Assembly: GCA_964275945.1 (NCBI GenBank)
Contig: CAXYEH010000021.1
Span: forward strand, 3,978-67,977
DNA: 64,000 nucleotides
Reading direction: 5' to 3'
Source: an uncultured Pseudomonadales bacterium
Lineage (GTDB): Bacteria > Pseudomonadota > Gammaproteobacteria > Pseudomonadales > Pseudohongiellaceae
The notes under the pieces are model-generated. The model was not told the origin of the DNA, did no database searches, and was given only the letters and a program-made list of their open reading frames with translations. The position numbers and the translations under genes were made by a program. Positions 2,592 through 31,188 of this stretch are shown one piece after another. The first letter of the stretch is position 1. Every line of letters begins with the position of its first letter.

Positions 2592-4541
2592 TTATTGCGG
2601 TAATGCGAAGGTAAAAATTTTCGCATCATTGAAACGGCCACCGGATATGGAGATGTGCTGTCTGCCATCAGCTAGGTAACTCATTACCGGGCCGTGCAAG
2701 CGAACATCCACGAGTACTTCCCCGACTTTTTCACCTGTCTCCTTGTTAAATGCAACCAAGATCGATCCATCTGCATCCGGATCAATCTCGTCTTTCTGCG
2801 CCAGATGAGTAATCAACAGAGTCTTGGTGACTAGGATGCCGCCCTCGGCTGAGTAGTCGCTAAACGAGCTACCGAGATCCGGTAAGTTGAGGTGCGCTAG
2901 CGCAGGATGGTTCGCTGGCCCTCTACCGAGAGGAGTTTTCCATACGTGTTCACCAGTGTTGAGGTCAATCGCGGTAATGCGCCTATAGGGTGGTTTTACC
3001 AGGGGCAATCCCATAGGACCAACGTTACGCTGTACACGGATAACATAGGGCCAGTCCGCTTCAGTGTCATTTGGTGGCACCAATGACATTGCATAAGGAC
3101 GCGTTTGAGAGGGCACATAGAGAATATTAGTCTCGGGGTCGATGTTGGCGCCAGGGAAGCTAGCACCGCCACCTGCGCCTGGCATGAAGATAGTCGCCTC
3201 CTTGCCATCGGTGCCTTCCACAATCGGTGGCGTGAATATCGGACCCATCACATATTTCTTTGCCAGCTCTTTCGCTGCGGCGGCTATTTCCGGCGTGAAA
3301 TCGATCAGATCTGCTTCACTCATCCCCTGCTTCTCAAATGGCAGTGGCCAAGTTGGATGTGGCTGAGTCGGATGGGCGCGCTCACCAGGCACATTGCTCG
3401 GCGGCACGGGAAGTTCCTCTATTGGCCACACAGGCTCACCGGTAATGCGGTCGAACACATAGGTGAAACCGGTCTTGGACACCTGAGCTACCGCCTTGAT
3501 GGGACGGCCATCAACCACGATGTCGACCAGATTGGGAGCCGAGGCAATGTCGTAATCCCAAAGGCCATGGTGCACCGTCTGAAAATGCCAGATGCGCTCA
3601 CCCGTCTCTGCATCCACGGCGACCAGTGATTCAGCAAACAGGTTTTCACCGAGGCGGGTGCCGCCCCAGTAATCATTAGTAGGGGTAGCAATAGGTAGAT
3701 AAACAATGCCCGCCTCATCATCAGCCGACATGAAGGTCCACACGTTGGTGTTCCCCATCTTGCGCCAGGAATCATTTTCCCACGTCTCGGTGAAATCATC
3801 GCCCTGCTGGGGAATCGTGTTGAAACGCCATTTGAATTGGCCGGTGTAGGCGTCATACGCACGGACATGACCGGGAGGATTGCGATTGAACTCCGTATAG
3901 TCGAATAGAGAGGAGCCAACGATAACTGAGCTGCCCACAGCGATCGGAGGTGAGCCATGGGTGATATTATCTAAATTAAATTCGTCTGTGCTCTTGCCGA
4001 AATCACCGCGCAAGTCCGCAAAGCCATTATCACCGAAATTCTTATCCGGCAGACCGGTTTTGATATCGATGCTAACCAGTTGCTTACCGCGCGTCGCAAT
4101 AAATATGCGTTCAATCTCGCCGTCAGTCCAGTATTCGATGCCTCGAGTTGAACTAGCACCCCTCCCTACGGTTAGTTGATAACTTTCAGGGTCGAAAACC
4201 CATAATTCTCTGCCACTTACTGGATCCAGTGCCGCTACTTGCCCAAGACTCGTATTGGTATACATGACCCCATTCACGAGAAGAGGGGTCGCGCGGTAGG
4301 GGCTAGTGTTAGAGGCCAACGAGCGAGGAATTCTGGCATCTGCCGACTGCCAATCCCACGCGACTTCCAAATCTGCGAAGTTGCTCGAATCAATTTGGTC
4401 TAAGGGTGAATATTTGGCAGAGAAATGATTGCCACCAGCATGATGCCACTCACCGAACGGAGCACTCGTCTGCTCAGGCTGCGGTGCACAGGCACCTGAT
4501 AAAAGTGCAACTGCGAGTAGGACAGAATAAGAGCGAATCAT
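2592..4541 (-). CDS. PQQ-dependent dehydrogenase (quinoprotein, glucose/quinate-like beta-propeller), lipoprotein
   Basis: The ORF track gives 2592..4796, but an internal ATG at 4541 is preceded by GGAGGA 7 nt upstream and opens a lipobox leader MIRSYSVLLAVALLSGAC. The N-terminal quinoprotein signature is GGNHFSAKYSPLDQIDSSNFADLEVAWDW. W-rich propeller repeats and HHGLWDYD are also present. Confidence 0.85.
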   Translation of the reverse strand: MIRSYSVLLAVALLSGACAPQPEQTSAPFGEWHHAGGNHFSAKYSPLDQIDSSNFADLEVAWDWQSADARIPRSLASNTSPYRATPLLVNGVMYTNTSLGQVAALDPVSGRELWVFDPESYQLTVGRGASSTRGIEYWTDGEIERIFIATRGKQLVSIDIKTGLPDKNFGDNGFADLRGDFGKSTDEFNLDNITHGSPPIAVGSSVIVGSSLFDYTEFNRNPPGHVRAYDAYTGQFKWRFNTIPQQGDDFTETWENDSWRKMGNTNVWTFMSADDEAGIVYLPIATPTNDYWGGTRLGENLFAESLVAVDAETGERIWHFQTVHHGLWDYDIASAPNLVDIVVDGRPIKAVAQVSKTGFTYVFDRITGEPVWPIEELPVPPSNVPGERAHPTQPHPTWPLPFEKQGMSEADLIDFTPEIAAAAKELAKKYVMGPIFTPPIVEGTDGKEATIFMPGAGGGASFPGANIDPETNILYVPSQTRPYAMSLVPPNDTEADWPYVIRVQRNVGPMGLPLVKPPYRRITAIDLNTGEHVWKTPLGRGPANHPALAHLNLPDLGSSFSDYSAEGGILVTKTLLITHLAQKDEIDPDADGSILVAFNKETGEKVGEVLVDVRLHGPVMSYLADGRQHISISGGRFNDAKIFTFALPQ

Positions 4542-4566
4542 AAGCCTGTCCTCCATAGATCGTTTA

Positions 4567-5823
4567 TTATGACCAGCGCAGCGCCTTACTGCCTTGACCA
4601 AACGCATCCACCTCAAGGCCCATCGATTGCAATAGAGTGACGAAGAGATCAGACAATGGCGCATCTTGCTCTTGCGTATTCGCAATGTGCTTGCCGTGCG
4701 CAAAACCGCCGCCTGCAACAAGAATAGGGAGCTGCTTGGAGGAATGGGAGGCTGCATTACCAAGATTACTGCCAAACAAGACTGCCGTCTCGTCAAGAAT
4801 CGAACCCCCAGCGAGGCTGGGCTGCTGAAGTTCTGTTAGCAGATTACCAAAACGGTTAATGATCTCTGTTTCGATAATCTTAAGCTGGGCTATATTAGTC
4901 GCATCCTGACCGTGATGGGAAAGCCCGTGCTGGTCTTTGGATACACCCGCAATTTGCGGCACTACACCATGGTCGTGAATCATCAGACTGACAACGCGAG
5001 AAGAATCGGTCTGGAGAATAAGCGGAATAAGGTTGAGCATGAGCTCGATACGGCCGATGAGGTCAGTATTGTCCGGAATGTCAACTGGAGACTCCTGACC
5101 AACCTCTGGCTTGGGACGATTCGTCCAAGCTTGTACCTCGGTAAGTTGATTCTCTGCCGCGCGCACCGCCTCGAAATGAGCGTTGAGCTTGTGCTTATCA
5201 GAAGCGCTGACTTGCTTACCAAGTCGTCGCCCCTCCTCCAGCAAATGGTCGAGGATACTTCCGCCGTCATTCAAACTCTGAGTTTCGCGCCTGATTTCCT
5301 CTGCGCTACCTCGCAGAAATAGTTTTTTGAACACTCCCGCTGGGCTTGATTCGGCCGGGACCATTACACCGTTCGCAGTGTAGGACTGGCTTTGCGGACT
5401 CGTTGTGCCGAGCACAATTGACGGGAATCGAGTCTCATAACCAATATGATTGGCAGCCGCCTGGTCCATGGAAATGGTATTTTGGAAACCATCCAAACCC
5501 GGATGCCTTGCCGAGGTCAGCCAGGTAATCTCTGAGTTGTGTGCTTGCCGGCCATTTTGCGCCTCGTGTGAGAGTCCAGAAAAGACCGTATACTGACTGC
5601 GGTGATGATCGATCAGCTTAAGATATTCTGTCGCTTCATAGTCTGCCCCATCATTTTTCGGCAACCACGAGGGCGTGTATAAACCCAGCGTGCAACCGAT
5701 GTTCACCATCCGCCTGATTTGCGCCGCGCCGTAAGCGGGCATCACCTCGAGATATGGTAGAGCGAGCGCCACACCGGATGCTCGCAACAGAGTGCGTCGA
5801 CTTATCTTATTGCCTTTTTTCAT
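4567..5823 (-). CDS. DUF1552-type protein with twin-arginine signal
   Basis: 418 aa with Tat-like leader MKKGNKISRRTLLRASGVALALP. It starts 6 nt downstream of a DUF1592-type gene, the canonical DUF1592/DUF1552 pairing. The family assignment is from memory of the N-terminal pattern and the pairing. Confidence 0.75.
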   Translation of the reverse strand: MKKGNKISRRTLLRASGVALALPYLEVMPAYGAAQIRRMVNIGCTLGLYTPSWLPKNDGADYEATEYLKLIDHHRSQYTVFSGLSHEAQNGRQAHNSEITWLTSARHPGLDGFQNTISMDQAAANHIGYETRFPSIVLGTTSPQSQSYTANGVMVPAESSPAGVFKKLFLRGSAEEIRRETQSLNDGGSILDHLLEEGRRLGKQVSASDKHKLNAHFEAVRAAENQLTEVQAWTNRPKPEVGQESPVDIPDNTDLIGRIELMLNLIPLILQTDSSRVVSLMIHDHGVVPQIAGVSKDQHGLSHHGQDATNIAQLKIIETEIINRFGNLLTELQQPSLAGGSILDETAVLFGSNLGNAASHSSKQLPILVAGGGFAHGKHIANTQEQDAPLSDLFVTLLQSMGLEVDAFGQGSKALRWS

Positions 5824-8222
5824 ATTAGACTACCTCGTCCTAAACAGATCGCTTGCCACGACCTCGTGAATCATTGTACGCAATGCGTAATTTTGGTCCT
5901 TGGTCGAGCTGAGGATCTCGTTCACCGCATCCCGGTCGGAAAACTCGACCTGCGCCCCGGTGCTGAATGTTATGAGTTGGTCCGCGAGATTGTAAGAGAT
6001 CGCATCCATCTCATTGTCCAACAACACTTGTTGGTAATCGGCGAATCCGCGGAAAGACGCCCCGTCAGATGTAATGCCACTGGCATCCACCGGCAGCCCC
6101 AACTGATAAGGCGCATATTGCAGAATCTCAGAAAAAGCCCCGACAGCCCGGTACTGGTCGCGAAATCCTCCGATAGGATCGAACGATTCGAGCGCAAAGC
6201 CCGGTGGGTCGATGGTTTTATGACAACCCGCGCAGATGGTGCTGTCTCGATGCGCCGCCAGCTGTTCGCGAATCGTAGTCGTCCCGCGCGTGTCGGGCTC
6301 CACACCACCCACGTTCGGCGGCGGTGGCGGTGCTGGGCGGCCAAGCAAATTCGCAAGCACAAAATTGCCGCGCGGTATGGGCGACGTGGTCGTCCCGTTC
6401 GCCGTGATCTTATGGATACTGCCCTGACCCAACAAACCGCCTCGCACGCTGCCCTCTGGCAGCATCACTTTGCGCATCTGCTGTCCTTCGATACCCGGCA
6501 CGTTGTAATGCTCAGCTAGACGACGGTTCAGGAACGTAAAGTCCGCACGGACGAGGTTCGTCAAACTCAAGTTCTCGCGGATCAGCTCCTCATAAAAAAG
6601 CTCAGACTCCGCTATCATGGCCTGACCAAGGAGGTCGTTAAATTCGGGATACAGCCCCGTATCAGGCGAAGTTGAGTTGATCTCATAGAGTCGATAAGCC
6701 TGCCCCACGAAGTCCTTGACGAAGCGCTTACTTTTCGGATCATCGAGCATGCGCTCCACCTGACGTGCCAGCTCTGCAGGCTCGGACAAACGACCGGCTT
6801 CAGCGACGGCGAGAAGCGCATCGTCGGGCATACTGCGCCACAGAAAATACGACAGGCGCGAGGCCAGGCTGTAATCATCCAGAGCGCCGCTAGCACCGTC
6901 TTGGTAGAGAAATGACGGCGCATTCAAGACCGTTCTAAGTGGCACGCGCAGTGCCTCAAGAAAAGGTCTGCCGTCTTCTAGCAACGGTATCGCCATATCG
7001 GCGTACAACTTGGCTTCACCTTCGGTGAGCGGTCGACGGAAGGCACGCTGCGCGAACGTCTCGACAATCTCGTTGATGTGATCCATGGCCGGCTTGGAAA
7101 GTTTAATCTGGCCCGACTCGTCAAAATCGATGCCGGTCAAGAGCTCGCGAGTACTCGCTGGCGGCCACACGTCATTCAAAGGGCCTTCGATAACTAGCGA
7201 CTTCATCGCGATGCCCTCGCCCCTGTAATCAGTGACGAAGTTTTCAGGGAGATAATATATGCCGGGATTTTCCCCCCGGTAATCGACATCCGCCAGCGAG
7301 GGGGCCACTAACATACCGGGCTCCAGATAAGTGATCTCCTCGACAACACGACCTTCCGGCTCAACTAAATCGTAACTACCGATGAGATTATCAAGCGATG
7401 CGACAATGCCTTGCTTTTTACCGCTATACAAAGTCAAGATTACCGGTGAATCCGCCTGGTAGGGATAAGCATCGAGGGTGACCCGGTAGCGTCCTGGCGA
7501 CGGCACGTTGTAGCCCTCCGACTCAGTATAAAAGGCGTAGGTCGATACGGTATCAAAAAACGTAGCAACCCCGTCGTCGAGCAACTTGGTAACGCCGAGG
7601 CCGAAAACCTCCTGAGTACTCAGAGTATAAAGAAACGGCGACTTCCGATACTCAATTTCGAAACGCTCCGACTCAGGACGTGGACCGAGCTGGATTGCTG
7701 CATCCAGCGCTCTGTCAGCCGCGCGCAAGTAGCCACGCACGTGCAAGGACGAGATGTCCTGATTTTTAGCCACGGTATCGAAACCGCCTGTATCGGCGGC
7801 GGCGGGTAATTCCGAAGCCATAGCCGTCGCCGTCTCTGCATCGAGATGCAGAAGGTCTTGTAAGGAATAAGCATACTCAAGCTGAGTCAGCCTACGCAGC
7901 TCCGCTCGTGAGCCACCACGCGCGGCTATATTGGCATCAACTAAGGCAGGCTTGAGAGCGGCAAGCGCATTCTCAATCAGCGACTGAACCGTGTCTGTCA
8001 CCTCCATCGGGGGCATCTGACCACGCTCAATACGATTATAGATATGCTGCCAAGTGCGATAAACCTCGGCATCGCCAAGGTCATAGCTGAGTTCTTGCAT
8101 ATTAAGGGGAGTCACCGTGCCCTCGCCATGGCACAAAAGGCAAGATGCCTCCAGCATTGGCTCCACTTCAGCTTCGAAGGAATCGGCACTGGCGTGTCCG
8201 ACGACAAACATGGTGCAAACGA
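5784..8222 (-). repeat. Tandem duplication unit A (partner 8698..11145)
   Basis: 5784-7173 matches 8698-10087 at a constant offset of 2914 nt, near-identical. 7672-8222 matches 10595-11145 at an offset of 2923 nt. The central 7174-7671 is strongly diverged. Confidence 0.9.
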
Positions 8223-8244
8223 GCAAAGTTGTTAATTTATACAT
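5830..8244 (-). CDS. DUF1592/DUF1585/DUF1587/DUF1588/DUF1595-type (planctomycete PSD-domain) protein with two CxxCH motifs, copy A
   Basis: The start is set at MYKLTTLLVCTMFVVGHASA (residue 41 of the track ORF 5830..8364) by homology to the copy B start. CLLCH lies at 8128-8142 and CAGCHKTIDPPGFALESFDPIGGFR at about 6220-6234, the latter being the hallmark of the DUF1585 C-terminal domain. Confidence 0.85.
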   Translation of the reverse strand: MYKLTTLLVCTMFVVGHASADSFEAEVEPMLEASCLLCHGEGTVTPLNMQELSYDLGDAEVYRTWQHIYNRIERGQMPPMEVTDTVQSLIENALAALKPALVDANIAARGGSRAELRRLTQLEYAYSLQDLLHLDAETATAMASELPAAADTGGFDTVAKNQDISSLHVRGYLRAADRALDAAIQLGPRPESERFEIEYRKSPFLYTLSTQEVFGLGVTKLLDDGVATFFDTVSTYAFYTESEGYNVPSPGRYRVTLDAYPYQADSPVILTLYSGKKQGIVASLDNLIGSYDLVEPEGRVVEEITYLEPGMLVAPSLADVDYRGENPGIYYLPENFVTDYRGEGIAMKSLVIEGPLNDVWPPASTRELLTGIDFDESGQIKLSKPAMDHINEIVETFAQRAFRRPLTEGEAKLYADMAIPLLEDGRPFLEALRVPLRTVLNAPSFLYQDGASGALDDYSLASRLSYFLWRSMPDDALLAVAEAGRLSEPAELARQVERMLDDPKSKRFVKDFVGQAYRLYEINSTSPDTGLYPEFNDLLGQAMIAESELFYEELIRENLSLTNLVRADFTFLNRRLAEHYNVPGIEGQQMRKVMLPEGSVRGGLLGQGSIHKITANGTTTSPIPRGNFVLANLLGRPAPPPPPNVGGVEPDTRGTTTIREQLAAHRDSTICAGCHKTIDPPGFALESFDPIGGFRDQYRAVGAFSEILQYAPYQLGLPVDASGITSDGASFRGFADYQQVLLDNEMDAISYNLADQLITFSTGAQVEFSDRDAVNEILSSTKDQNYALRTMIHEVVASDLFRTR

Positions 8245-8540
8245 GTATCTAAGCTCCCTGTCTAAAGCTGCGACTAACCTATTATATCGAATTATTGCTA
8301 ATAATTTCCAGACGCCCGTTAAAGAAAAAAAACCCCTGAGATTTAAATATTCAAATAATATCAATTACTTAAAAGAAATTCCGAGGACAGAAATGTGATA
8401 GTTTGTGACTGACAATAATCAATCAGAACTAGGCGCCCTTCTGGCCTTTTAGACTCTTTTTTTTAAATTAAAGATTATTTCTTTAAATATATACGTTAAT
8501 TATTTACAAAAGGTTGCAAAATCTTTGGCTTTCCTACTTT

Positions 8541-8602
8541 GCAGCCTGATAAAGCTCGATCTCGTAGACGTTCAGATCGTTGAAGAAGAGGTTTACCAGC
8601 AC
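8541..8602 (-). repeat. 62-nt repeat S1 (partner 11274..11335), possible VOC-fold gene tail remnant
   Basis: gcagcctgataaagctcgatctcgtagacgttcagatcgttgaagaagaggtttaccagcac matches 11274-11335 at about 55/62 positions by eye. The minus-strand frame reads ...LVNLFFNDLNVYEIELYQAAK*. Confidence 0.7.
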
Positions 8603-8635
8603 GTTGTCGCCTTCCAGCTTTATTCTTATTCCTAG

Positions 8636-8737
8636 CTATGACCAGCGCAGCGTCTTGCTGCCTTGACCAAACGCATCCACCTCGAGGCCCATCGATTGCA
8701 ACAGGGTGCGTCGACTTATCTTATTGCCTTTTTTCAT
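8636..8737 (-). pseudogene. Internally deleted relic of a second DUF1552 gene (33 codons)
   Basis: It translates as MKKGNKISRRTLLQSMGLEVDAFGQGSKTLRWS*. That is the first 13 codons of 4567..5823 fused in frame to its last 20. The same 6-nt spacer (attaga) to the upstream DUF1592 stop is kept. Confidence 0.8.
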
Positions 8738-11145
8738 ATTAGACTACCTCGTCCTAAACAGATCGCTTGCCACGACCTCGTGAATCATTGTACGCAATGC
8801 GTAATTTTGGTCCTTGGTCGAGCTGAGGATCTCGTTCACCGCATCCCGGTCGGAAAACTCGACCTGCGCCCCGGTGCTGAATGTTATGAGTTGGTCCGCG
8901 AGATTGTAAGAGATCGCATCCATCTCATTGTCCAACAACACTTGTTGGTAATCGGCGAATCCGCGGAAAGACGCCCCGTCAGATGTAATGCCACTGGCAT
9001 CCACCGGCAGCCCCAACTGATAAGGCGCATATTGCAGAATCTCAGAAAAAGCCCCGACAGCCCGGTACTGGTCGCGAAATCCTCCGATAGGATCGAACGA
9101 TTCGAGCGCAAAGCCCGGTGGGTCGATGGTTTTATGACAACCCGCGCAGATGGTGCTGTCTCGATGCGCCGCCAGCTGTTCGCGAATCGTAGTCGTCCCG
9201 CGCGTGTCGGGCTCCACACCACCCACGTTCGGCGGCGGTGGCGGTGCTGGGCGGCCAAGCAAATTCGCAAGCACAAAATTGCCGCGCGGTATGGGCGACG
9301 TGGTCGTCCCGTTCGCCGTGATCTTATGGATACTGCCCTGACCCAACAAACCGCCTCGCACGCTGCCCTCTGGCAGCATCACTTTGCGCATCTGCTGTCC
9401 TTCGATACCCGGCACGTTGTAATGCTCAGCTAGACGACGGTTCAGGAACGTAAAGTCCGCACGGACGAGGTTCGTCAAACTCAAGTTCTCGCGGATCAGC
9501 TCCTCATAAAAAAGCTCAGACTCCGCTATCATGGCCTGACCAAGGAGGTCGTTAAATTCGGGATACAGCCCCGTATCAGGCGAAGTTGAGTTGATCTCAT
9601 AGAGTCGATAAGCCTGCCCCACGAAGTCTTTGACGAAGCGCTTACTTTTCGGATCATCGAGCATGCGCTCCACCTGACGTGCCAGCTCTGCAGGCTCGGA
9701 CAAACGACCGGCTTCAGCGACGGCGAGAAGCGCATCGTCGGGCATACTGCGCCACAGAAAATACGACAGGCGCGAGGCCAGGCTGTAATCATCCAGAGCG
9801 CCGCTAGCACCGTCTTGGTAGAGAAATGACGGCGCATTCAAGACCGTTCTAAGTGGCACGCGCAGTGCCTCAAGAAAAGGTCTACCGTCTTCTAGCAACG
9901 GTATCGCCATATCGGCGTACAACTTGGCTTCACCTTCGGTGAGCGGTCGACGGAAGGCACGCTGCGCGAACGTCTCGACAATCTCGTTGATGTGATCCAT
10001 GGCCGGCTTAGAAAGTTTAATCTGGCCCGACTCGTCAAAATCAATGCCGGTCAAGAGCTCGCGAGTACTCGCTGGCGGCCACACGTCATGCAAGGGCCCT
10101 TCGATGGTCATCGACTTGACCGCGATGCCCTCACCCGGGTAATCACGGGCGTTGTTTTCAGGGAGGGCATAATAAGAAAGCATCCCCCCTTCATCATGAT
10201 CTGCCAGTGAGGGGCTCAATAACATGCCGGGTGTCAAGTAGGTGATCACTTCTACGACACGCGCTTCCGGCTCAACTAGATCGAAACTGCCAATGAGATT
10301 ATCAAGCGATGCGACAAGGCCCGACTGTTTGACACCGCTGTACAACGTCAAAATCACTGGCGACTCTGCCTGGTAGGGATAAGCCTCCAGCGTGACTCGA
10401 TAGCGTCCTGGCGCCGGCACGCGGTAAGTTTCCGGATGGTAGTTCATGGAATGCATGAGAAAGGTCGATCCGATATCGAAGAACATAACAGCGGCGTCGT
10501 CGAGCATCACGGTAATGCCGGCACCGGAATTGTCCGATTCATTAAAAATGGAAAGAAACTGCGACTTCGCATATTCGATTTCGTGACGTAGCAACTCAGG
10601 ACGGGGACCGAGCTGGATTGCTGCATCCAGCGCACTGTCGGCCGCGCTCAAGTAGCCGCGCACGTGCAAGGACGAGATGTCCTGATTTTTAGCCACGGTA
10701 TCGAAACCGCCTGTGTCGGCGGCGGCGGGTAATTCCGAAGCCATAGCCGTCGCCGTCTCTGCATCGAGATGCAGAAGGTCTTGTAAGGAATAAGCATACT
10801 CAAGCTGAGTCAGCCTACGCAGCTCCGCTCGTGAGCCACCACGCGCGGCTATATTGGCATCAACTAAGGCAGGCTTGAGAGCGGCAAGCGCATTCTCAAT
10901 CAGCGACTGAACCGTGTCTGTCACCTCCATCGGGGGCATCTGACCACGCTCAATACGATTATAGATATGCTGCCAAGTGCGATAAACCTCGGCATCGCCA
11001 AGGTCATAGCTGAGTTCTTGCATATTAAGGGGAGTCACCGTGCCCTCGCCATGGCACAAAAGGCAAGATGCCTCCAGCATTGGCTCCACTTCAGCTTCGA
11101 AGGAATCGGCACTGGCGTGTCCGACGACAAACATGGTGCAAACGA
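8698..11145 (-). repeat. Tandem duplication unit B (partner 5784..8222)
   Basis: See unit A. It includes the first 37 nt of the DUF1552 gene/relic and the whole DUF1592-type gene. Confidence 0.9.
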
Positions 11146-11167
11146 GCAGTGCTGTTAATTTATTCAT
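8744..11167 (-). CDS. DUF1592/DUF1585-type PSD-domain protein with two CxxCH motifs, copy B
   Basis: 807-aa ORF with signal peptide MNKLTALLVCTMFVVGHASA. The N-terminal ~190 aa and C-terminal ~447 aa are (near-)identical to copy A, and the central ~169 aa are diverged. Confidence 0.85.
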   Translation of the reverse strand: MNKLTALLVCTMFVVGHASADSFEAEVEPMLEASCLLCHGEGTVTPLNMQELSYDLGDAEVYRTWQHIYNRIERGQMPPMEVTDTVQSLIENALAALKPALVDANIAARGGSRAELRRLTQLEYAYSLQDLLHLDAETATAMASELPAAADTGGFDTVAKNQDISSLHVRGYLSAADSALDAAIQLGPRPELLRHEIEYAKSQFLSIFNESDNSGAGITVMLDDAAVMFFDIGSTFLMHSMNYHPETYRVPAPGRYRVTLEAYPYQAESPVILTLYSGVKQSGLVASLDNLIGSFDLVEPEARVVEVITYLTPGMLLSPSLADHDEGGMLSYYALPENNARDYPGEGIAVKSMTIEGPLHDVWPPASTRELLTGIDFDESGQIKLSKPAMDHINEIVETFAQRAFRRPLTEGEAKLYADMAIPLLEDGRPFLEALRVPLRTVLNAPSFLYQDGASGALDDYSLASRLSYFLWRSMPDDALLAVAEAGRLSEPAELARQVERMLDDPKSKRFVKDFVGQAYRLYEINSTSPDTGLYPEFNDLLGQAMIAESELFYEELIRENLSLTNLVRADFTFLNRRLAEHYNVPGIEGQQMRKVMLPEGSVRGGLLGQGSIHKITANGTTTSPIPRGNFVLANLLGRPAPPPPPNVGGVEPDTRGTTTIREQLAAHRDSTICAGCHKTIDPPGFALESFDPIGGFRDQYRAVGAFSEILQYAPYQLGLPVDASGITSDGASFRGFADYQQVLLDNEMDAISYNLADQLITFSTGAQVEFSDRDAVNEILSSTKDQNYALRTMIHEVVASDLFRTR

Positions 11168-11273
11168 GAATCCAAGTTCCTATTTACAAAATCCTATTTA
11201 ATTGCTGCTATTGATCTACTATCTAGGTTCTACATTAGACGCAGCAATTCTCTTTCTTTGACTTTTCAACTTC

Positions 11274-11335
11274 GCCGCCTGATAAAGCTCGATCTCGTAG
11301 CCGTTCAGATCTTGGAAGAAGAGGATTACCGGCAC
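11274..11335 (-). repeat. 62-nt repeat S2 (partner 8541..8602)
   Basis: gccgcctgataaagctcgatctcgtagccgttcagatcttggaagaagaggattaccggcac. The minus frame reads ...ILFFQDLNGYEIELYQAAK... and is open only from about 11374. Confidence 0.7.
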
Positions 11336-11864
11336 AATGAGAATCCCTCCATTGGGGTGTTTTATTTTTTGCGGTCAATGTCGCCAGCATTGTATAGGCG
11401 GCAACCGCCAATAAAATAATGGCTTTAGTTTTTCTACCGCCGTGAGGCTCACGATCAATCATATCTTTTCTTTTAATTAGTAACCATGTGTGCAGATTAA
11501 CCTCTCAGTGAGGAACCATCCTCCGCTATTCCGTGAATGCCGACTAATTCTCAGTTTTTGACTTCAAAAAAGAAAGCTCGTTATAGAATAATTCCCGCCA
11601 GGATTCCTAAAATTAGAATTAGTAACTCAGAATTAAGCACACCTTTCTCAGCGCTTATTGCCTGAAAACCATTAAATCGTAATGCGCAAGTTTAGCCAAT
11701 CAGAAGTGGTCCATTTGGCGGCGAAAGAAACGATCACCCACGCTCAATAACTTCGCTAACTGTGACCCCTGACCCCAACCTAACTAGACAAGTCCCAACC
11801 ACAGAGATACTATCTTCGCCCACTTAAATATGCTCGTGGAGCATAATCCAATAGAGGAAGAGAC

Positions 11865-12830
11865 ATGATAAAGCTGGGGATGGGATCTAGCAAAAAAAGA
11901 AAGATGATGAAGAAGGGAATGCGCGCTGATGGATTCCGAGGACTCCTCAGTTTTTCCTTGATGGCGTCTTGTCTCTGCGGCATATCTGCCTCGGCACAAG
12001 ATTTATCCCTGGTCGAGCAGAAGGTCCACAAGCTCAGCGACACGGTTTGGTGGATAGAGCCCGTTCCAGCTTACGGTGGCAACATAGCCGTATCCGCCGG
12101 TGAAGATGGGATACTCATGGTTGACGATCAGCTAATGCCGCTGACAGACGATATCAAAGAGGCGGTCGCTGGCATTCAGGAAGGAAAGGTCGACTTCCTC
12201 GTTAACAGCCACTACCACTACGATCATGCCGGCGGTAACGCTGCGTTCGGTGAGGAGTCTTTAATCATCGCGCACCACAGTGTGCGAACGCGTCTCTTGG
12301 AAGGACGGGAGGCAGGATCAAATTTCCGCGAAGAACCGCACCCAGCTGAGGCAATACCTGTGCTGACCTTCAAGGAAAACGTCACCTTCCATTGGAACGG
12401 AGAGGATATCGACGTCATCTACCTCGGCAATGCCTCGCACACCGATGGCGATGCAGTAATCGTTTTTCGGGAATCGAACGTTATCCACACCGGTGACCAG
12501 TACGTCAACCTCAACGGTTACCCATTCATCGATCTCCCCGTGGGCGGCTCGGCTACCGGACTGCGGGATAACATCGCCGCAATGTTGGCGATGATAGACG
12601 ATGATACCAAAGTCATCCCTGGCCACGGCCCTATGACGACAAAGACCGAACTGCAGGCCTACCACGACCGAATCGCGGCAACGATCGACCTCGTGGAGAA
12701 GCAAAAGTCAGCAGGGAAATCACTAGATGAAATCCAGGAAACCGGACTACCAGACGAATACTCCAAGTTCACCGGCTTCATGACTATCCCCACTTGGATC
12801 CAACAGGTATTCAGCAGTCTCAACGACTGA
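11865..12830 (+). CDS. MBL-fold metallo-hydrolase, exported
   Basis: HxHxDH motif NSHYHYDHAGGN, later HTDGD and PGHG. The signal region is LLSFSLMASCLCGISASAQ. GAGGAA sits 5-6 nt upstream of the ATG. Confidence 0.85.
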   Translation: MIKLGMGSSKKRKMMKKGMRADGFRGLLSFSLMASCLCGISASAQDLSLVEQKVHKLSDTVWWIEPVPAYGGNIAVSAGEDGILMVDDQLMPLTDDIKEAVAGIQEGKVDFLVNSHYHYDHAGGNAAFGEESLIIAHHSVRTRLLEGREAGSNFREEPHPAEAIPVLTFKENVTFHWNGEDIDVIYLGNASHTDGDAVIVFRESNVIHTGDQYVNLNGYPFIDLPVGGSATGLRDNIAAMLAMIDDDTKVIPGHGPMTTKTELQAYHDRIAATIDLVEKQKSAGKSLDEIQETGLPDEYSKFTGFMTIPTWIQQVFSSLND

Positions 12831-26817: not shown

Positions 26818-27054
26818 GCAATATTTCCTAACTCATTAACTAATAATCTCGGTCGTGTAACGCCGAGCCCTTTTGATTTGTTTGTTATGTGCTTTTACAA
26901 AAAAAGAACAAAGGCTTCCGGTAGTTTGACGGGATTATCGTTTACAAGGATGTTGTGCAATCTCACTTAGAGTTGACCTGACGAGATTAACAACCCAGGA
27001 GACCCTCTACAGGAGGGTCCCCAGAAGACATAGATTCCGTCAGTGCCGCCTCAG

Positions 27055-28908
27055 CTAGGGTAATGCAAATACGAACAGGTTGGTTCCGCGGCTAGGCCTT
27101 AACTCGGGTGTCCCAATGCTACCTAACCAGGGCCCGGTATTTACCGCAACATACTGCTTCCCATCCACTGCATAAGTTATCGGGAAGCCGACTACCGGGG
27201 AGCCCAGGTTTATTTCCCAAAGGGCCTCACCGGTCTCATGATCGTGGGCCCGAAAGCGGCCGTTGGCATCTCCGCCGAATACCAGCCCGCCGCCTGTGGA
27301 CATCAGCGATGTAGTGCCGGCCCGTTGCTCATAAAGCCATTCGGTGCGGCCTGTTTCGGCATTGATTGCTCTTACGGTGCCCAAGTTGTCCGTGCCGGGT
27401 GCAATCCGATGCCTGCCCGCCAGTGAGTACAGAGCCAGGCCACCTCTGACAATCTCACGCTCGAGGTCGGTAGCCCTTTGCGTTTCGAAGTCAGCGGTGG
27501 CCATCATGTCGGCACAGGTGTTGCGCAACGGATAGTACATGGTATTGGTGAGTGGGCTGTAGGTACCCGTTTCCCAATTCTTGCCCCCAAGCCAGGTCGG
27601 ACAGACAAACACAATTTGTTCTGTCTCACGAAAAACCACCTCCGGATTTTCCGTCACCTCGCCAGTCACGCCGTCAATGTTCTGTATTATGTTCTGGAAT
27701 ACGGTAGGAGTTGCCCACAGGAACTCGCCGGTCTCTCGGTCCAGCGTGTACACCACGCCGGTCTTGCCGGGAATACCGGTGATGACCTTGCGAACTTCGC
27801 CAACCTTCAGATCAGGGTTAATCCACTCAACTTCGTCTGGATCGGGTGTCACTGAGGTGTCCACGAGCAGGCGCTCAAAAGGATGGTCCATATCCCAGTG
27901 ATCATTGAGATGCTGGTAGTACCAGCGTATCTCACCGGTATCTACCTCCAGCGCCAGGGTACTGTTGTGATACAAATACTTCTTATCAACGCCATCTAGA
28001 AAGATTTTCGGTGCCGGCGAGGTGACAGAAGTACCGAAGATAATCAGCTTCAGCTCCGGGTCGTAACTCGAAGGCGTCCAGGATCCTACTTGTTGACGCA
28101 GCTCGTAAGGCACGTCGCCCCAGGTCTCGTAACCCGGCTCTCCAGGGGCTGGAATCAATTGGCGGCGCCACAGCTCGGCGCCGGTACGGGCATCATGGGC
28201 GGCGACAAAGCAGGCATCGGGCCCACCTCCCGGATAACCAAGTGTCGACTTACAACTGCGACCAGAAATTACTCGACCATCGGCAATAATCGGCCCCGAA
28301 CTATGGGTGCCGGTATTGATCTTGTAGTCGGAAACCTGGGTTTCCCATACGATTTCGCCGGTTTGAGCATTCAGTGCGAACACAAAGCCTTCAGCGCTAG
28401 AGTCGATGATTAGGTTTTCGTAAATGGCTAGGTTGCGATTATTGCTACCATGAGGCCCAATCCACTGAGACAGATCATCAGGCAGGTCCCGTCGATATGC
28501 CCAGATCAAGTCGCCACTGACGGCATCGATGGCCTCGATCACATCATTGGCCTGCGGAACGTAGAGGAGGCCGTTATAGGCCAGCGGTGTAATTTCATCA
28601 GTAGCGGCGGCCAGGTTGCGAGTCCACACCATCCTCATCTGACCCACATTGTCACGGTTGACTTCAGCCAAGGGGCTGTAGCCCCAGCTATCAAGCGTGC
28701 GACGCCACATGAGCCAGTCGCTGGGAGCGGGGTCCTGTAACATGGCATCGGTAACGGGTGGAAAACTACCAGGTCCTTGGCCGTAACTGACCGGGCTGAG
28801 TAAAACCAGACTTGCCAGCAAGACAGCCAGAGTCGTTTGTACAGTCCGGACAAAAACACCGAGTGTGGTATGGGAGATAGCGGGGTAGGTAGATATCACG
28901 TTTTTCAT
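27055..28908 (-). CDS. PQQ-dependent dehydrogenase, methanol/ethanol (type I ADH-like) family, exported
   Basis: 617 aa. The N-terminal signature reads VTDAMLQDPAPSDWLMWRRTLDSWGYSPLAEVNRDNVGQMRMVW. Propeller W-motifs, NDHWDMDHP, and the C-terminal ITYAVDGKQYVAV block are present. Confidence 0.9.
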   Translation of the reverse strand: MKNVISTYPAISHTTLGVFVRTVQTTLAVLLASLVLLSPVSYGQGPGSFPPVTDAMLQDPAPSDWLMWRRTLDSWGYSPLAEVNRDNVGQMRMVWTRNLAAATDEITPLAYNGLLYVPQANDVIEAIDAVSGDLIWAYRRDLPDDLSQWIGPHGSNNRNLAIYENLIIDSSAEGFVFALNAQTGEIVWETQVSDYKINTGTHSSGPIIADGRVISGRSCKSTLGYPGGGPDACFVAAHDARTGAELWRRQLIPAPGEPGYETWGDVPYELRQQVGSWTPSSYDPELKLIIFGTSVTSPAPKIFLDGVDKKYLYHNSTLALEVDTGEIRWYYQHLNDHWDMDHPFERLLVDTSVTPDPDEVEWINPDLKVGEVRKVITGIPGKTGVVYTLDRETGEFLWATPTVFQNIIQNIDGVTGEVTENPEVVFRETEQIVFVCPTWLGGKNWETGTYSPLTNTMYYPLRNTCADMMATADFETQRATDLEREIVRGGLALYSLAGRHRIAPGTDNLGTVRAINAETGRTEWLYEQRAGTTSLMSTGGGLVFGGDANGRFRAHDHETGEALWEINLGSPVVGFPITYAVDGKQYVAVNTGPWLGSIGTPELRPSRGTNLFVFALP

Positions 28909-29016
28909 GGCTATGTCGTTATCGAAATTTGGATTGCAGCATTAGGGTGGTCCGCTTTGAACCGCCATGGGACGGAGCCCTAGTCGGGCTCCACTCTATG
29001 TACATCTTCGCTTCAG

Positions 29017-30862
29017 TTAGGGTAATGCAAAGATGAACAGGTTAGCGTTGCCGCTGGGCCTTATCTCGGGTGTGGCAACACCACCCAGTCCACGTCCGGT
29101 ATTTACCGCAACATACTGTTTTCCATCCACGGCATAGCTTATCGGGTAGCCGACTACTTCGGCGCCCAGATTTATTTCCCAGAGTATCTCACCGGTCTCA
29201 TCATCAAAGGCTCTAAAACGGCCGTTGATATCGCCACCGAATACCAGCCTTCCGCCGGTGGCTACCATAGGATACCGTGCCAGCGCGCTGTTCATATAGC
29301 CACTCAGTGCGACCAGTCTCGGCATTGATCGCTCTTACCGTGCCCGAGTTGGTCTCGCCGGGGGTCATTCGAGCTCTGGCCGCCAGTGAGTAGATGGACT
29401 GGGCGCCGTCGATAATGTCACGCGCGAGTTCGGTATCATTGGTCGTCTTGAGGTCAGCGGTGGCCATCATGTCGGCACAGGTGTTGCGCACCCCATAATA
29501 CATGTTATTGGTGAGTGGGCTGTAGGCGCCTGCTTCCCAATCCCTGCCCCCGAGCAAGTGCGGACAGACCATCACAATCTGTTCGTTTTCGCGAAAGATC
29601 ACTTCCTCGTTGAGTACCACCTCGCCAGTGGCGCCGTCAATATTCGAGATAACGTTTTGAAATGTGGTAGGGGTTGCCCACAGGAACTCACCGGTCTCTC
29701 GGTCCAGTGTGTAAACTATGCCGGTCTTGCCGGGAATGCCGGTGATAACCTTGCGAACTTCGCCAGCCTCCAAATTTGGATTTATCCACTCAACTTCGTC
29801 TGGATCGGGAGCCACTGCAGTGTCCACCAACAGCCGCTCAAAAGGATGATCCAAATCCCAGTGGTCATTGAGGTGCTGGTAGTACCAGCGTATCTCACCG
29901 GTTTCAAGCTCCAGTGCCAGAGTGCTGTTGTGATAAAGATGATCGTTCTCGACGCCACCTAAAAAGAATTTCGGTGCGGGAGAAGTCACAGAGGTGCCTA
30001 TGATAATCAGCTCCAGCTCCGGATCGTAGCTGGCAGGCATCCACGAACCCACGTGTTGGCGCTGCTCGTAAGGCACGTCGCCCCAGGTCTCGTAACCCGG
30101 CTCTCCAGGCTTTGGAATCAACTGGCGGCGCCAAAGCTCAACGCCGGTAAGGGCATCATGGGCGGCGACAAAGCAGGCTTCGGGTCCACCTCCTGGATAA
30201 GTAGGTTTCGATCGACAACTGCGACCGGAAATAACCCGACCGTCGGCAATAATCGGCCCCGCACTATGGGTGCCGGTATTGACCTTGTAATCGAAAACTT
30301 GGGTTTCCCAAACGGTTTCGCCGGTTTGGGCATCCAGCGCAAACACGAAGCCGTCATCGCTGGTGTTGATGATCAGATTCCCAAAGATTGCTAGGTTGCG
30401 ATTGTTGCGGGCATTAACACCCACGTAGTCATAAAGGCCTTCCGGATGGTCGCGGCCGTATTCCCAGATCTGGTCGCCAGTGCGGGCATCGATGGCCTCG
30501 ATAACATCATTATGCTGCGGAACGTAGAGCACGCCATCATAGGCCAGCGGCGTAATTTCTCCAGTACCGGTGCCCAAGCCGTGGGTCCATACCATCCTCA
30601 ACTGATCCACATTGTCGCGGTTGACTTCAGCCAAGGGGCTATAGCCCCAGCTATCAAGCGTACGACGCCACATCAGCCAGTCGCTGGGAGCAGGGTCCTG
30701 TAGCATGGCATCAGTAACCGGTGGAAAGCTGTCGCTACCCTGACCGTAAGTGAATGGGCTAATTAACACTGTGCTTACCAGCAAGACAGCAAATATGGTT
30801 TGGACAGTCCGGGAAAAAATACCGACTGTGGTTTGACGGATAGCAGAGTAAACAGATGTCAT
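29017..30862 (-). pseudogene. PQQ-dependent dehydrogenase paralog interrupted by one frameshift near 29270
   Basis: Track ORFs 29213..30862 and 29017..29325 together are collinear with 27055..28908. The frame changes between ...WLYEQRAGTVS and MVATGGRLVFGGDINGRF (GGC ACG GTA TCC T|ATG GTA GCC). The intact copy reads AGTTSLMSTGGGLVF, so the lesion looks like a 2-nt loss or 1-nt gain. Confidence 0.8.
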
Positions 30863-31188
30863 GGTTTTATTCTTCTCACAATTTGATTGACAGGTATTAT
30901 TAACGACTCAGGAACTTACAATTATTCTAATGAAATTTAAATAACACTTGACGAATTTGGATAACATCGCGTCAATTATAAAGCGTTATATGGTAATAAA
31001 TTGTAACGAAGCACATGCAATTTTTTCTCCGATGAGCAATACCCCAGGGGGGAGCCAAGCAGTTATAACCTATCATGTTATTCAACTAGTTAGAATTTTC
31101 CCCTACTTTCAAATTCCATTGCACACCCATCACACACTTTTGGTATTTTTCTGAGCCTGATGCTCGTGCGCAAAGAACTGAATTTGAA

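Follow-up and report, generated by a model that had tools for sequence, protein, structure and literature searches.

A tandem pair of DUF1592-type genes with homogenised flanks and a probably foreign central domain in an uncultured marine gammaproteobacterium

Concerted evolution of bacterial paralogues by RecA-dependent gene conversion is well known from, for example, tufA and tufB in Salmonella and from the rRNA operons. Mosaic genes formed by interspecies homologous recombination are exemplified by pbp and penA of Streptococcus and Neisseria, and cassette-type systems with variable domains by the receptor-binding domain swaps of phage tail fibres and by the CdiA-CT and Rhs tips. Here we describe two adjacent genes, A and B, in a stretch of 64,000 nucleotides (nt), called the window below, from an uncultured Pseudomonadales bacterium of the Pseudohongiellaceae (GenBank assembly GCA_964275945.1, contig CAXYEH010000021.1, positions 3,978 to 67,977). 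Both encode DUF1592-type proteins that are near-identical at their two ends and strongly diverged in one central block, the core. The best overall explanation, and in our judgement a probable one, combines a tandem duplication of a gene unit, deletion of one partner gene, recurrent gene conversion and a foreign core in B.

The closest described protein systems are the PSCyt/PSD proteins. Genes of the PSCyt3 type are paired with a family of unknown function and some of them carry carbohydrate-binding modules (CBMs), with nothing known about their functions (PMC5615132). The pairing of DUF1592-type with DUF1552 genes is on record (PMC5615132). The PSCyt/PSD proteins, also of unknown function, are suspected of redox chemistry on carbohydrates (PMC5615132, PMC8981238), and Cbp2D of Cellvibrio is a redox protein in which a CBM, c-type cytochrome domains and DUF1587 are joined (PMC8981238).

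The limits of genes A and B (Table 1) were given correctly to the base in a preliminary description of the sequence, as self-BLAST of the window and a MAFFT alignment confirm. In the self-BLAST, 5784-8257 pairs with 8698-11180 at 93.6% identity over 2491 columns, and a repeat search returned the two offsets read earlier, 2914 and 2923 nt. Between 5784-7173 and 8698-10087 there are four substitutions, at the same positions as first reported (6715, 6970, 7096 and 7129), and all of the changes in the C-terminal 445 codons are synonymous (synonymous differences Sd = 4, nonsynonymous differences Nd = 0). The coding sequence at 5830-6714 (885 nt) and the stretch at 7793-8225 (433 nt) match their counterparts in B without a difference, and the identity goes on for 46 nt downstream of the coding sequences, save one mismatch. 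The first ~190 codons hold the four amino acid (aa) differences expected, namely N2Y, A6T, S174R and S178R. The homogenised 3' tract takes in the first 40 nt of the DUF1552 gene, and the 5' tract codes for the signal peptide, a haem motif and PSD3.

Between these tracts lies a divergent block of about 550 nt, placed by our own alignment at 7176-7725 in A and 10090-10648 in B. The preliminary description had the block at 7174-7671; the block itself stood and its 5' side proved slightly wider. Inside it 405 of 547 nt are identical (74.0%) and three indels (9, 3 and 3 nt) add 15 gap columns, and beyond it 1855 of 1865 nt are identical (99.5%). Differing columns number 157 of 571 inside the block versus 10 of 1856 outside (Fisher p = 9e-93), thus the differences are clustered far above chance and not evenly spread along the computed alignment. 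The protein identity across the core as first delimited is 63.6%, within the range of 55-65% with indels that had been estimated by eye.

Table 1. Features of the tandem locus, with positions in the window (L, related locus; ORF, open reading frame; PQQ, pyrroloquinoline quinone; VOC, vicinal oxygen chelate; MBL, metallo-beta-lactamase)
Feature	Positions	Strand	Evidence or remark
PQQ-dependent alcohol-dehydrogenase-family beta-propeller, 649 aa	2592..4541	-	Pfam PF01011, 591 bits
DUF1552/HXXSHH partner, 418 aa, intact, downstream of A	4567..5823	-	Pfam PF07586, 231 bits; twin-arginine signal SRRTLL
Homogenised 3' tract of A (B counterpart 8698-10089)	5784..7175	-	Four synonymous differences; C-terminal 445 codons and 46 nt downstream
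Copy A, DUF1592-type protein, 804 aa, resident-type core	5830..8244	-	ORF, Pfam, homologues
A-type core, resident type	7176..7725	-	Common to L001 and the single-copy relatives L005 and L006
Homogenised 5' tract of A (B counterpart 10649-11167)	7726..8244	-	Six differences in 519 nt; 433-nt identical run
Glyoxalase/VOC 3'-end remnant upstream of A, marking the start of duplicated unit A	8522..8602	-	88% to 11255-11335
Remnant of second DUF1552 gene, downstream of B, 33-aa ORF	8636..8737	-	In-frame deletion
Copy B, DUF1592-type protein, 807 aa	8744..11167	-	Intact ORF; Pfam matches all above gathering score
B-type core, ~residues 174-360, predicted jelly-roll beta-sandwich	10090..10648	-	Closest to L014_1
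Glyoxalase/VOC 3'-end remnant upstream of B	11255..11335	-	Repeat search, relatives
MBL-fold gene, upstream of B	11865..12830	+ (opposite to B)	Neighbourhood

The core of B is xenologous and probably comes from a distant relative. In neighbour-joining trees A and B group together in both flanks, while in the core B groups with L014_1 and A groups with L001, L005 and L006, all with bootstrap values of 100%. B-type cores were found only in L014_1 and in the protein P0045, each of which occupies the upstream position in a further tandem pair of a more distant lineage. One copy with an A-like core is present in L005, L006 (OM182 MED-G28) and L009, which represent the closest species, and in L013, and the core of A is 95% identical to that of L006 in amino acids and 94.6% in nucleotides. 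Nucleotide identity between B and L014_1 is 89.7% in the core and 80-82% in the flanks. Synonymous divergence (dS) between A and B is 0.033 in the N-terminal part, 0.59 in the core and 0.013 in the C-terminal part, and between B and L014_1 it is 0.63, 0.16 and 0.63, respectively (core versus flanks, p = 9e-10), with dS of 0.58 (PQQ gene) and 0.85 for the genes neighbouring the pair in the window and in L014. The core of B is therefore too similar to L014_1 for a vertically inherited ancient paralogue and too dissimilar to A at synonymous sites for divergence in place. In a sliding-window comparison B is closest to L014_1 only over residues ~185-345, and the switch points, near residues 165-185 and 345-357, both fall in conserved stretches.

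Divergence in place would mean an old duplication in which the core diverged under diversifying selection while conversion kept the flanks alike, with no transfer. The core is indeed the least constrained domain, with ratios of nonsynonymous to synonymous divergence (dN/dS) of 0.2-0.6 versus 0.1-0.27 in the flanks, and the differences between A and B concentrate in loops. However, the dS of the core is also high (0.59 versus 0.01-0.03 in the flanks), its dN/dS of 0.42 is not above 1, and the high identity and the fully supported grouping of the B core are with a gene whose flanks and neighbours are at a dS of ~0.6 from the window. Rapid divergence of the core in place was rejected on dS and phylogeny; it is already contradicted and we regard it as very unlikely. 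The preliminary description had offered homogenised flanks or a swapped-in core as alternatives. Both apply together, and only the variant with a core diverged in place fails, given the dS of 0.16 and the bootstrap support for a xenologous core.

This resembles the mosaics of pbp and penA in that the phylogeny of an internal block conflicts with that of the flanks, the import is from a distant relative and the ends lie in conserved stretches. Unlike those mosaics, the block here is a whole structural domain, it is found in one of two tandem copies and the resident allele has been kept. In contrast to pbp and penA, we know of no selective agent for the imported block.

No closer donor was found in a scan of the JGI metagenomes with the B core, which gave only distant matches (47-57%), or in a protein search with the core alone, which gave two fragments. 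Proteins that join a B-type core to A-type flanks probably lie unseen in 90% clusters for which an A-type sequence is the representative. A candidate explanation as a diversity-generating or phase-variable cassette was rejected since there are only two copies in the 64 kb, the differences include indels and another species has a homologue with 90% identity to the B core. No reverse transcriptase or recombinase was found among the neighbouring ORFs scanned with Pfam, which are part of the ORFs in the window.

The distant OM182-like pair in L014 (332-5265) is an inverse mosaic, where the core is more alike than the flanks: the dS between L014_1 and L014_2 is 0.46 in the N-terminal part, 0.20 in the core and 0.45 in the C-terminal part, and the dN/dS of the core is 0.83. 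In L014_2 the likeness to B is confined to the latter half of the core (residues ~270-350). Core segments thus move independently of their flanks in more than one lineage.

The duplication has left remnants of genes on both sides of the copies. The 33-aa ORF downstream of B joins the first 13 codons of a DUF1552 gene in frame to the last 20, at an 11-nt microhomology (CACyCTrTTGC), and 8637-8708 is 93% identical to 4568-4639 in the 3' part of the intact DUF1552 gene. The same remnant is kept in L002, L003 and L004. The glyoxalase remnant (81 nt), which is found upstream of both copies, matches the 3' end of an intact 164-aa glyoxalase gene in L013, a syntenic single-copy locus. The paired glyoxalase remnants together with the DUF1552 remnant define a duplicated unit of ~4.07 kb made up of the glyoxalase 3' end, the DUF1592 gene and the DUF1552 gene. 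Today the units occupy 4568-8636 and 8637-~11335, and the DUF1552 partner of B was deleted after the unit was duplicated.

The glyoxalase/VOC gene, which lies between the MBL gene and DUF1592, has decayed to different degrees. The region 8969-10000 of L013 has it whole, with 164 aa, promoter-side and 3' fragments are left upstream of B (11168-11864), and in L005 and L006 it is fully absent, the spacer there being 335-392 nt. The 264-nt AT-rich spacer upstream of A (8245-8508) has no counterpart upstream of B and is found, among the relatives, only in tandem-carrying strains. Promoter and terminator scans of the region gave results at chance level, and the best promoter-like site, upstream of A at 8310-8281 (10/12), was not significant.

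The remnants also bear on a different history, in which the whole B unit (glyoxalase remnant, gene B and DUF1552) was imported beside the resident unit, from a related strain or species with a single-copy B-type core, and conversion from A later overwrote the flanks of B. The duplication itself would then be a product of lateral transfer. The ~10% divergence of the remnants is near the dS of 0.07-0.2 between species (window versus L005, L006 and L013), and core alleles do differ strongly between close lineages, as in L009/P0037 where the core is 75-77% identical at a flank identity of 93%. In L014 and in the contig of P0045, too, the B-type gene has a DUF1552 3' end on its upstream side and a second copy on its downstream side. 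On the other hand, none of the relatives searched combined a single copy with a B-type core and window-like flanks, and it is the sequence upstream of B that runs on into the resident MBL gene, with 99.7% identity to the single-copy contig L001. We consider an import of the whole unit unlikely; it differs from a duplication followed by import of the core only in the size of the imported piece.

The flanks are younger than the duplication. The non-coding or pseudogene remnants differ at 15 of 153 nt (~10%) versus 8 of 442 synonymous sites (~1.8%) in the flanks (p = 5e-5), and the lower divergence of the flanks indicates that they were homogenised after the duplication. In a small sample of four genomes, both alleles are found in both paralogues at columns 259, 305, 1103, 1120 and 1580 of the gene alignment. 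Column 259 is an example: in the window both copies have the base A, in L002 copy A has G and copy B has A, and in L003 and L004 both have G. The identical tract also ends on the right at different columns, 1080 in the window, 1103 in L002 and 1088 in L003 and L004. Shared polymorphisms, varying tract edges and young flanks taken together indicate that conversion between A and B is ongoing and goes in both directions, in agreement with the earlier suggestion of gene conversion in the flanks of an older duplication. The conversion would be of the RecA type and halted by the heterologous block.

As in the concerted evolution of tufA and tufB, the paralogues are near-identical, polymorphisms are common to both copies and tract ends vary by strain. 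Unlike tufA and tufB, a heterologous block of 550 nt interrupts the conversion here and only the two flanks evolve in concert. A further difference is that the copies are adjacent direct repeats, which makes collapse by deletion possible, as in the hybrid of the L001 type.

The hybrid in L001 (10001-12415) consists of one gene, which is of the B type as far as window position 10648 (codon ~174) and of the A type from 7717, with the crossover within 8 nt. It also has two isolated B-like sites inside the core, at columns 621 and 644 of the gene alignment. It is either the result of a deletion by unequal crossover or of collapse in a short-read assembly. We have downgraded L001 as proof of unequal crossover in the population because the contig is a short-read scaffold and may be collapsed across the 433-nt identical stretch.

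An assembly artefact could in principle give a similar picture if two strain alleles of a single-copy gene were strung into a false tandem. The window seems to stem from a metagenome, the ends of many short contigs (2.5-4 kb) fall near the gene and L001 has only the one hybrid copy. Exact-sequence look-ups of A and B gave no match, and the tandem relatives were reached via P0006, a close homologue encoded on three contigs from three ENA assemblies, L002 (1.05 Mb), L003 and L004. These have the order MBL gene, 807-aa gene, 804-aa gene, DUF1552 and PQQ gene in common, and their B genes are 99.4-99.6% identical to B of the window. The names of the two FRAM_RAS_F4 contigs match a time series assembled with metaFlye from PacBio HiFi reads of ~6 kb (PMC11790911), a link by name only. 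The spacer of 499 nt between A and B is unique sequence containing the DUF1552 and glyoxalase remnants, it is 100% identical in L002, and a collapsed assembly bubble would not produce it. The same layout in three further independent assemblies, including a 1.05-Mb contig and two apparently HiFi-based contigs, thus excludes the artefact that the preliminary description had considered, and a false tandem is extremely unlikely.

Both proteins belong to the DUF1592-type PSCyt3/PSD family by their domain content, as the Pfam order is PSD3 (DUF1587), PSD5 (DUF1595), PSD4 (DUF1592), PSCyt3 (DUF1588) and PSD2 (DUF1585), all above gathering score. Each has a signal-peptide-like N-terminus and CxxCH at residues 35-39 and 674-678. 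These are predicted haem-binding motifs and, among 82 homologues, C35/C38/H39 is nearly invariant and C674/C677/H678 invariant. The core lies between CxxCH/PSD3 and PSD5-PSD4-PSCyt3-PSD2, and the first placement of it between an N-terminal haem region and conserved C-terminal domains was therefore correct. Close homologues come from metagenome-assembled genomes labelled OM182 clade, Pseudohongiellaceae or Gammaproteobacteria. The ORF listed for copy A reaches a TTG at 8364, while homologues begin at the ATG at 8244 (P0003 and P0006 start with MYKLTT). Comparisons of the DUF1592 and DUF1552 sequences with PDB gave no significant match, and NCBIfam gave none for DUF1592, DUF1552 or a 346-aa neighbour.

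The structure prediction proposed earlier for the variable domain was run with AlphaFold2 (AF2) on an alignment of 82 sequences (mean predicted local distance difference test score, pLDDT, 78.8; predicted template modelling score 0.80). In the model, the stretch of residues ~190-360 folds into a beta-sandwich of nine strands, where pLDDT is mostly 75-93, and the core is thus predicted to be a jelly-roll beta-sandwich inserted between PSD3 and PSD5. Foldseek searches of PDB with the core gave weak jelly-roll matches to CBM6, CBM22, a porphyran-binding CBM and TNF/C1q (E 2e-3 to 2e-2, template modelling score to target 0.45-0.56). No Pfam family reached threshold for the isolated cores at E up to 10, the only match being BclA_C at E = 0.04. 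The differences between A and B are more frequent outside the strands (47 of 100 residues) than in them (14 of 66; p = 9e-4). For the core, dN/dS is 0.42 between A and B, 0.60 between B and L014_1 and 0.18-0.55 among A-type orthologues, versus 0.1-0.27 for the flanks. The core is the least constrained and fastest-evolving domain of the family, and positive selection is unsupported since dN/dS is never above 1. Of the earlier suggestion that the core is diversifying, the rapid evolution with differences mainly in loops remains and diversifying selection is not supported, as dN/dS is 0.42 here and 0.2-0.6 in orthologues. The further suggestion of a specificity determinant is plausible in view of the predicted beta-sandwich and its weak matches to CBM folds, with dN/dS values that stay below 1.

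The arrangement is similar to that of PSCyt/PSD ('Planctomycete-specific cytochrome c') proteins with inserted CBMs (He et al. 2017, PMC5615132), which have the same domain set, CxxCH motifs, a beta-sandwich between conserved domains, here a predicted one, and a conserved partner, here DUF1552. It differs from that described in PVC (Planctomycetes-Verrucomicrobia-Chlamydiae) bacteria (PMC5615132) in that the host is an OM182 gammaproteobacterium, the insert belongs to no Pfam CBM family and the neighbour is a PQQ dehydrogenase, not sulfatases. With tail fibres, CdiA-CT and Rhs the locus has a conserved chassis and an exchangeable, laterally moving variable module in common. Unlike in those systems, the module is internal and not terminal, there is no immunity gene, silent cassette array or dedicated recombinase, and two alleles are present in the genome.

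The history that we favour starts from what the analysis shows directly: how the genes are built, which gene remnants are left, that the copies are mosaic, that trees of the segments conflict, that the paralogues share polymorphisms, and which fold is predicted. An ancestral operon of glyoxalase, DUF1592, DUF1552 and PQQ dehydrogenase genes would have existed in a marine host of the OM182 clade, and the ~4.07-kb unit would have been duplicated in tandem. The upstream unit would then have lost DUF1552 by a 1.14-kb in-frame deletion at the 11-nt microhomology. Repeated bidirectional conversion would keep the 5' ~520 nt and the 3' ~1390 nt near-identical. The central ~550 nt of B would be an allele from a distant OM182 lineage, acquired by recombination with end points in the conserved stretches that border the domain, and with 26% divergence and indels the block would now act as a heterology barrier where conversion tracts stop.

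Several points weigh against this history and against a functional reading of it. The B-type relatives consist of one DNA sequence (L014_1) and one protein (P0045), and any donor lineage or direction of transfer is therefore tentative. Neither GC nor GC3 (GC at third codon positions) sets the B core apart, GC3 being 61% there and 59% in the A core. With remnants of only 72 and 81 nt, the age of the duplication is rough. The CBM-like assignment is weak, being drawn from weak Foldseek matches with no Pfam match. With core dN/dS below 1, heterology alone, rather than selection, may keep two cores. Lastly, the function of neither DUF1592 nor DUF1552 is known (PMC5615132).

The mosaic might also be a neutral by-product, with B redundant or decaying and its core kept only because heterology blocks conversion. 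B has no cognate DUF1552, the core dN/dS between B and L014_1 is as high as 0.60, the population may contain a hybrid of B and A in single copy (L001) and the closest species get by with one copy. Against a non-adaptive origin, each of the four genomes has B as an intact ORF of 807 codons, the strains show only 3 differences in its core, dN/dS values of 0.42-0.60 are still below neutrality and the strands of the sandwich are conserved. A neutral origin therefore seems rather unlikely to us. If the favoured history is instead followed to function, A and B would be periplasmic haem proteins that share one chassis but differ in the beta-sandwich module, and the two modules would bind different ligands or partners. 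The one DUF1552 protein that is left would serve both, as would, probably, the PQQ dehydrogenase next to it. A bolder and doubtful proposal is that the beta-sandwich insert is a laterally exchangeable ligand-specificity cassette on a haem chassis, and that conversion of the chassis is selectively favoured by shared docking to DUF1552 and feeding of the neighbouring PQQ dehydrogenase system.

The product of the PQQ gene matches quinohaemoprotein alcohol dehydrogenases among the PDB sequences (3e-41), and a conserved PQQ-dehydrogenase neighbour suggests a periplasmic redox role. A PQQ gene with ~58% identity adjoins DUF1592/DUF1552 also in loci L008 and L011 of Vicinamibacterales (Acidobacteriota), and this adjacency across phyla suggests a conserved functional module or co-transfer. 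The adjacent DUF1552 partner is intact after A, and after B only the 33-aa deletion remnant is found. The AF2 model of DUF1552 has a pLDDT of 65.7 and its fold matches are weak (E >= 0.013) and all in the alkaline-phosphatase/sulfatase superfamily, a hint from a low-confidence model that the partner is weakly alkaline-phosphatase/sulfatase-like. An ORF of 734 aa with a TTG start (2592-4796) is an over-extension of the PQQ gene, for which gene callers and homologues give 649 aa and a start at 4541.

A second tandem duplication in the window, 27047-28869 versus 29009-30832 on the minus strand, comprises two paralogues of PQQ beta-propeller dehydrogenases with 81% nucleotide identity. One of them (27055..28908, 617 aa) is intact and the other is frameshifted near 29244-29282 (tblastn frames -1 and -2), which makes it a pseudogene or reflects a sequencing error. 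The divergence in this pair (27047-30868) is even along its length, with no mosaic.

Other loci vary in copy number and gene order. In L010 from Hydrogenedentota (17.4 kb), five or more copies of DUF1592 alternate with DUF1552 genes and remnants in one array, and L007 from Vicinamibacterales has three DUF1592 copies. Tandem amplification of DUF1592 with decay of the partner gene appears to recur across phyla. L015, L016 and L017 represent another locus type, with glyoxalase, DUF1552, DUF1592 (P0041, 804 aa) and a PQQ gene (593 aa), where the order of the partners is reversed. These loci come from the same Fram Strait samples, and the core of P0041 is no closer to A than to B, with a dS of 0.35 to each.

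None of the three processes at work here is new in itself, and the mosaic is clean but not unprecedented. The locus is a well-resolved case, seen in several assemblies, of tandem duplication, domain-sized lateral replacement and ongoing, heterology-limited concerted evolution in one gene pair of an uncultured ocean bacterium. Few families of unknown function are as numerous in Planctomycetota, Verrucomicrobiota, Acidobacteriota and some marine Gammaproteobacteria as the DUF1592/DUF1552 and related PSCyt/PSD pairs. The locus amounts to a natural experiment in which two proteins, near-identical save one structural domain, stand side by side with a single partner gene. If the cores bind different ligands, comparing A with B would single out what determines specificity in the family, all else being constant. 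If the cassette proposal is true, A and B would be a two-allele sensor or enzyme pair on a shared chassis, and would give the first experimental handle on what governs substrate choice in the very large orphan PSCyt/PSD-DUF1552 families.

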